A stretch of DNA of 64,000 nucleotides from Escherichia coli (GTDB lineage: Bacteria > Pseudomonadota > Gammaproteobacteria > Enterobacterales > Enterobacteriaceae). A program made the translations under genes and the position numbers. This document shows, piece after piece, positions 60,440-60,705 of the stretch. The notes under the pieces were generated by a model. That model was not told where the DNA came from, searched no databases, and worked only from the letters and a program-made list of their open reading frames with translations. The DNA is taken from the NCBI RefSeq assembly GCF_016026235.1, contig NZ_CP065613.1; one strand, written 5' to 3'. The number at the start of each line of letters is the position of its first letter. Within the stretch, counting starts at the first letter, position 1.

Positions 60440-60705
60440 CCATTGTTGGGCAAATATAGATTGGGCCAGAGCACGAAAGTTAATACCACGTTCGCACAGC
60501 TCCTCCAACAGCACGACAAGATGCCACATACTGCGCCCCAGTCGGTTCAGTTTACAGACTAGCAGTGCGTTCCCTGCCGATGATGTCCTGAGCAGTTTTT
60601 TCAGTCCGGACCTCCTGCCACGGTTTTACGTTGAAGTGGTAACCCTGAGCACGCAGTTCTTCAGTCAGGCGTGGTGCACCGTAACGCTGTTATTGCTGGG
60701 TAAGC
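60440..60705 (-). pseudogene. pinH: remnants of a Pin/Hin-family DNA invertase gene (pinH-like) fused to an IS3-family transposase fragment
   Basis: Minus-strand translation gives NRLGRSMWHLVVLLEELCERGINFRALA (serine recombinase core) and upstream ...[23 protein letters not shown] (IS3-type transposase), broken by stops. Confidence 0.6.

Follow-up and report, generated by a model that had tools for sequence, protein, structure and literature searches.

We found that the minus-strand sequence from 60455 to 60703 is, with a probability of about 93%, a non-functional fossil that is drifting neutrally. It consists of the orthologue of the K-12 pseudogene pinH and an adjoining, unannotated scrap of IS3. 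Positions are those of the window, that is, the whole 64-kb stretch of Escherichia coli DNA that was analysed. An earlier note on this DNA had described a Pin-like invertase remnant here, with an IS3-type transposase fragment just upstream in the same orientation, and both identifications held up. The features discussed below are as follows.

30880-31242, plus strand: ssrA, the tmRNA gene, target of the integration of the island array
31446-32687, plus strand: tyrosine integrase gene of P4 type, intact and with its arm-binding, central and catalytic domains, belonging to the island proximal to ssrA
55265-55305, plus strand: counterpart of psaA in K-12; forms the attR of the CP4-57-like island proximal to ssrA and borders the older ypjA island on the left
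55461-60047, minus strand: ypjA/ehaD, intact autotransporter adhesin gene (start at 60047 inferred from the K-12 annotation)
60386-60454, minus strand: tail of the K-12 pinH annotation (69 nt, ORF stop at 60386), where no homology to recombinases can be recognised except for a possible frameshifted 'PMG' trace around 60439-60451
60455-60616, minus strand: pinH core, part of the interior of a gene for a serine DNA invertase of the Pin/Gin family (PinE residues ~41-94), with no start codon of its own
60617-60703, minus strand: internal fragment of IS3 orfB (InsF residues ~58-85, HTH_21 region) with a 1-nt deletion, an in-frame stop and no IS ends
60727-60787, plus strand: CP4-57-like attR (P) arm, right end of the older ypjA-bearing ssrA island, unlike the Fels-2 P arm
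60788-60802, plus strand: degenerate copy of the ssrA 3' end, a pseudo-att core like psaA
60803-60864, plus strand: ssrA-type terminator hairpin, decayed here, plus 17 nt
60983-62332, minus strand: ypjCB (DUF5507+DUF5508), one intact gene in this window, two separate genes in K-12
63088-63163, minus strand: ileY, tRNA-Ile2 with anticodon CAU (labelled tRNA-Met by ARAGORN and ileY by RefSeq)

The relics lie inside the 935-bp spacer between ypjA and ypjCB, 400-650 bp upstream of ypjA, and ssrA and the CAU-anticodon tRNA gene are the two ends of the span that holds them. The comparison with K-12 pinH that had been proposed in the earlier note identified an orthologue. The gene order ypjA - pinH - ypjB/C - ileY matches that of K-12, the spacer is 98.9% identical to that of K-12 MG1655 over its 935 nt, and pinH (b2648) is annotated as a pseudogene at the homologous position (60386-60625). 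Locus, neighbours (ypjA, ypjB/C, ileY) and junctions are all alike in the two strains, with few point differences. In a strain that is identical over this stretch, PGAP labels 60455-60622 as 'recombinase family protein, missing N- and C-terminus', and the locus carries a PGAP pseudogene annotation in further strains as well. The K-12 annotation extends over the 69 nt in which no homology is recognisable and leaves the IS3 piece unmentioned. pinH is already known as an annotated K-12 pseudogene, scarcely mentioned in the papers searched, and the IS3 scrap and the adjoining hybrid attachment-site relic (below) are small refinements.

The pinH core is 162 nt (54 codons in minus-strand frame 1) and corresponds to the middle third of a Pin/Gin-type invertase. 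It matches the Pfam Resolvase domain (PF00239) with E=1.2e-9 and 38.9 bits (cut-off 23.3) over profile positions 48-103 of 145. A tblastn comparison with K-12 PinE gave 40 identities in 56 residues (71%; PinE residues 39-94; E=7e-23), and blastn matched nt 124-270 of pinE at 123/147 positions (84%; E=1e-42). The similarity to recombinases and transposases on which the earlier note depended is therefore significant, and chance can explain neither this match nor the one to IS3 (below).

Because the Resolvase domain is common to both groups, we considered whether the piece might come from a transposon resolvase of the Tn3/gamma-delta type rather than from an invertase. Among solved structures, Gin was matched at E=4e-12 (49 bits), as against 3e-3 to 3e-2 (18-21 bits) for the gamma-delta and Tn3 resolvases, and DNA identity of 77-86% was seen only with pin and other invertase genes. 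A resolvase origin thus has almost no chance of being correct. As judged from sequence comparison, the piece is closer to invertases than to resolvases, and the label 'Pin-like invertase' is correct.

Like PinE (e14), Gin (Mu) and the invertases beside P2-like tail-fibre genes, the pinH piece has the core that surrounds the DRLGRS motif and the ERGINFR stretch (71% amino acid identity to PinE, 84-86% at the level of DNA). In contrast to these enzymes, it retains only ~54 of ~184 codons. The motif itself reads NRLGRS in place of the conserved DRLGR(S). Both arginines are kept, and aspartate is replaced by asparagine in every lineage examined. The core quoted in the earlier note is indeed present, but one letter was wrong: the motif had been given as DRLGRS. 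Homology begins at PinE residue ~39-42, with IS3-derived DNA upstream, and the region of the nucleophilic serine (Ser9/10, YxRVST motif) is absent. The E-helix and the C-terminal HTH (PinE 95-184) gave no tblastn match, either in 60001-61000 or in the whole window. A continuation of pin past codon 94 in other frames was limited to a non-significant 13-nt 'PMG' trace at 60439-51. There is no invertible segment, tail-fibre genes are absent from the neighbourhood, and the sequence between 59900 and 63200 has no inverted repeats that resemble crossover sites, only three weak AT-rich ones (73-76% complementary).

In phages, the closest matches (74-84%) were to DNA invertases from temperate myoviruses, some of which are P2-like. 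A protein search for intact close relatives yielded nothing but 45-97-aa ORF calls that belong to this pseudogene. In DNA searches, the nearest matches were to pinE in E. coli genomes (85.7%), at ~77% in plasmids and at 83.7% in phages. These searches thus uncovered no close relative of this pin lineage that is intact, the nearest gene being pinE at ~86%, and they point to no particular donor element.

The IS3 scrap corresponds to nt 466-553 of the orfAB coding sequence. Over 88 aligned positions, one of them a 1-nt gap on the window side, it shares 88.6% identity with IS3 orfB; its identity to IS3H is 90.9%. Its translation includes a 22-residue stretch matching InsF residues 62-83. The Pfam HTH_21 match (E=1.2e-4) is under the gathering score owing to the small size of the piece. 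The source is IS3 or a very close relative. IS3 is ~1.26 kb in length. Compared to IS3 and IS3H (IS3 family, IS3 group), which it resembles over 87 nt of orfB, the scrap represents ~7% of the element. The homology is confined to these 87 internal nt, with no terminal inverted repeats and no target-site duplication. Only the HTH_21 region of orfB is left; orfA, the programmed -1 frameshift site and the DDE (rve) domain are absent.

The two pieces abut at 60616/60617, to within about 3 nt. They had been called fused, and as DNA they are. That is, they are joined at the DNA level only: their reading frames differ and a stop codon separates them, which leaves no fusion protein. The term 'graveyard' was an overstatement, as there is one pin-like and one IS3-like piece in the entire 64-kb window. 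These two pieces were also the only parts of the spacer with matches in the plasmid collection, once the chromosome-length records there were set aside.

The junctions are old and widespread. Of 5,426 complete E. coli genomes, about 3,007 have the mosaic, which occurs together with ypjCB. Four lineages whose spacers have diverged by up to 8% (92% identity) have identical gene order and junctions. In many strains, ORF calls that span the junction contain the same out-of-frame read-through of IS3 (14 residues) and the same 3' end, AQSIFAQQWGD; this uniformity holds for every junction-spanning ORF call among those retrieved. Based on the junctions shared across lineages and ~3,000 genomes, we infer that the decay was a single, ancient event.

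The pin fragment is drifting neutrally, with no selective constraint. The 26 of its 162 positions that vary among the four lineages are spread over codon positions 1, 2 and 3 (8/8/10), and one lineage has an in-frame stop within the piece. We also considered that the fragment is still used, either as a 47-72-aa ORF encoding a truncated Pin peptide that interferes with PinE, PinQ or PinR, or as DNA that serves as a regulatory element for ypjA. An ORF is indeed open in many strains, including this one (47 codons, MWHLVV..., 60386-60529), and the relic is within the 935-bp region upstream of ypjA. However, in addition to the even spread of substitutions and the in-frame stop, the starts and ends of the ORF differ between lineages, and the peptide would be without the E-helix that forms dimers. 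The pin piece is also among the most variable parts of the spacer (16% variable columns, versus 5.8% in 60048-60454), and the conserved part is the 400 bp proximal to ypjA. A function for the fragment is therefore highly improbable. An Rfam scan of the spacer gave no match, promoter-like sites in the spacer were not above shuffled controls, and the promoter and terminator scan yielded nothing relevant.

The ~400 bp next to ypjA (60048-60454), with far fewer variable columns between lineages than the relics beyond, are probably the ypjA regulatory region. A 39-aa ORF on the minus strand within it (60112-60231) is annotated in RefSeq as a hypothetical protein (WP_001120794.1).

In our reading, this fossil derives from a Pin/Gin-type invertase gene of the kind found beside invertible tail-fibre genes in temperate myoviruses. 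A copy of IS3 was located 5' of pin in the same orientation. Both were close to the right end of an old CP4-57-like island, integrated at ssrA, which also carries ypjA. The arrangement needs at least three deletion joints, in agreement with the proposal that successive insertions and deletions had occurred here. The joints are observed, and their order is a matter of reconstruction. One deletion brought pin codon ~41 up against a point inside IS3 orfB, about InsF codon 85 (at 60616/60617). Another removed the 5' part of IS3 and island DNA up to ~25 bp from the attR arm (at about 60704-60726), and a third removed pin from codon ~95 onward (at about 60440-60455). The remnant has drifted neutrally since before the divergence of the E. 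coli lineages that carry the ypjA-ypjCB block. IS3 may have had a part in some of these deletions, although no IS end has survived. Without the serine nucleophile, the E-helix and dimer interface, the HTH, the DDE domain and the ends of IS3, the remnant cannot recombine DNA.

The relics had been placed at the distal end of an island, and the DNA next to them bears this out. In K-12, CP4-57 ends at psaA, a 14-nt pseudo-ssrA 3' end that has its counterpart in the window at ~55290-55305. The last 77 nt of CP4-57 in K-12, ending in CCGCCAGCCCACCAA, are repeated at the equivalent of 60727-60803 (57/77 identities; direct repeat; corrected p about 4e-8). Within this window, the corresponding pair (psaA and the distal attachment site) matches at 78% over 41 nt. 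In the window, the psaA-equivalent core (55286-55305) has lost 4 nt relative to K-12 (CCGCCAGCCAATC here, CCGCCAGCCCACCAATC in K-12). Both pseudo-cores have the same 1-nt deletion relative to ssrA, as expected if these were the attR sites of related elements. The sequence at 60727-60803 has the order of an attR, an element-derived arm and then a partial ssrA 3' end. The 77-nt repeat and the pseudo-cores together indicate that ypjA, pinH and the IS3 scrap are inside an older CP4-57-like island (55306-60802). The relics are 25-350 bp from its right end, with the attachment arm starting ~25 bp beyond the IS3 scrap.

Strain EC17CM12, in which a P2-like prophage occupies the position of CP4-57, confirms psaA as a true attachment junction of the past. 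There, a perfect 46-nt ssrA repeat is followed by the flank equivalent to window 55299 onward.

The relics had also been suggested to have fixed the island in place, and this suggestion is not supported. Pin-family enzymes invert DNA segments; they do not integrate or excise islands. In addition, the proximal island keeps its intact tyrosine integrase, the only integrase confirmed in the window. No integrase of the older island was found in its expected position, the ~155 nt between psaA (55305) and the ypjA stop (55461). It is likely that loss of this integrase, and not loss of pin, keeps the older ypjA island immobile.

To the right of the pseudo-core the affinities change. The sequence at 60789-60864 is 87% identical to the attP core and P' arm of Fels-2, SopEPhi, RE2010 and SEN8, including 17 nt past the terminator. 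A match to the part at 60803-60864 is likewise found directly after the intact ssrA of EC17CM12, with its integrated P2-like prophage. The terminator hairpin has a predicted stability of -20 kcal/mol after the live ssrA versus -10.9 kcal/mol here. In six species of Photorhabdus, the ssrA 3' end and the terminator beginning AAATAAATCAAGGGGTTAC are conserved exactly, with compensatory changes in the stem, and one Photorhabdus locus (L017) has an attR-like partial core before the same flank. When the genome collection was scanned for ssrA joined to this flank, only Photorhabdus was found, and there too phage-like genes follow the flank. A chimeric query for an empty ssrA site joined to the ypjCB flank found none among the E. 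coli genomes; the 205-nt matches were P2-like attL sites. The right arm (60803-60864) may therefore be either the ancestral flank of ssrA or the attL arm of a vanished Fels-2-like prophage.

Thus, the attachment-site relic resembles two known types. It shares with psaA and the CP4-57 attR the 77-nt repeat and with the Fels-2 attP the core and P' arm. It differs from both in being a hybrid of two att types with a degenerate core, a weakened hairpin and no associated integrase. We tentatively suggest, as a possibility that falls somewhat short of even odds, that the 140-bp sequence at 60727-60864 is a hybrid attachment site with a CP4-57-type P arm, a pseudo-ssrA core and a Fels-2-type P' arm. 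The span from ssrA to ileY would then record at least three successive integrations at the tmRNA gene, by a Fels-2-like myovirus, a ypjA-bearing CP4-like island and the present CP4-57-like island, with pinH and IS3 as debris of the middle layer. Work by Williams from 2003 on integration at the tmRNA gene may already describe this layering.

A different donor is compatible with the fossil reading of pinH. Both the pin relic and the arm at 60789-60864 could come from a P2-like prophage of the Fels-2/SopEPhi type, once integrated at ssrA with its tail-fibre invertase, then overrun by CP4-like islands and almost entirely deleted. The 87% match of the arm, extending 17 nt past the terminator, is as expected from such a donor, and prophages of this type do integrate at this ssrA site in E. 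coli with an intact Pin-like invertase oriented as pinH is. However, pinH is to the left of the pseudo-core, inside the CP4-like arm, which is the wrong side for a simple collinear relic. The prophage invertase is only 77% identical to pinH (compared to 84-86% for pinE), and the terminator also follows ssrA in Photorhabdus, so the arm may be native ssrA flank. We consider this donor unlikely.

The P2-like prophage at ssrA in EC17CM12 has an intact gene for a 188-aa Pin-like invertase (locus L009, 44765-45331) beside tail-fibre assembly genes in the opposite orientation. This prophage was rejected as the donor of pinH, as the identity between the two invertase genes is only 77% and the flanking DNA shows no similarity. 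Its invertase gene shows, in living form, what sort of gene pinH used to be.

Several observations concern the surroundings of the relics. The intact ypjCB here is a single ORF of 449 aa, and K-12 has separate ypjB and ypjC. The protein is only 71% identical to a 484-aa allele from another E. coli lineage, with an internal indel of ~35 aa; the gene is fast-evolving and has a GC content of 31-35%. In strain FDAARGOS_943, where identity to the window over 60200-60900 is 100%, IS600 lies inside ypjA and IS1 inside ypjCB. Since these genes are intact in the window, IS traffic in this block continues in some strains. In strain ECKH-505, homology to the window ends exactly at the 3' end of ileY (63088), where there is a P2-like prophage, indicating that ileY is a second phage attachment site bordering the region. 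No copy of the ileY 3' end marking an ileY island was found within the window. The flank from ileY to ygaQ is absent altogether from about 2,000 of the 5,426 genomes.

Our results indicate that pinH with its IS3 scrap is a relic of little importance in itself, and nothing points to activity. The K-12 annotation of pinH could shrink to the 162 nt that are truly derived from a recombinase gene, and the adjoining 87-nt IS3 scrap could be added to it. The relics mark the right end of the old ssrA island, where a degenerate attR is still recognisable, and this helps to delimit CP4-57 from the segment that carries ypjA. The fixed junctions provide a handy neutral marker with which the ypjA-ypjCB block of E. 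coli could be dated. If the proposed succession of integrations is true, the layering between ssrA and ileY would be a small, datable stratigraphy common to more than half of E. coli.
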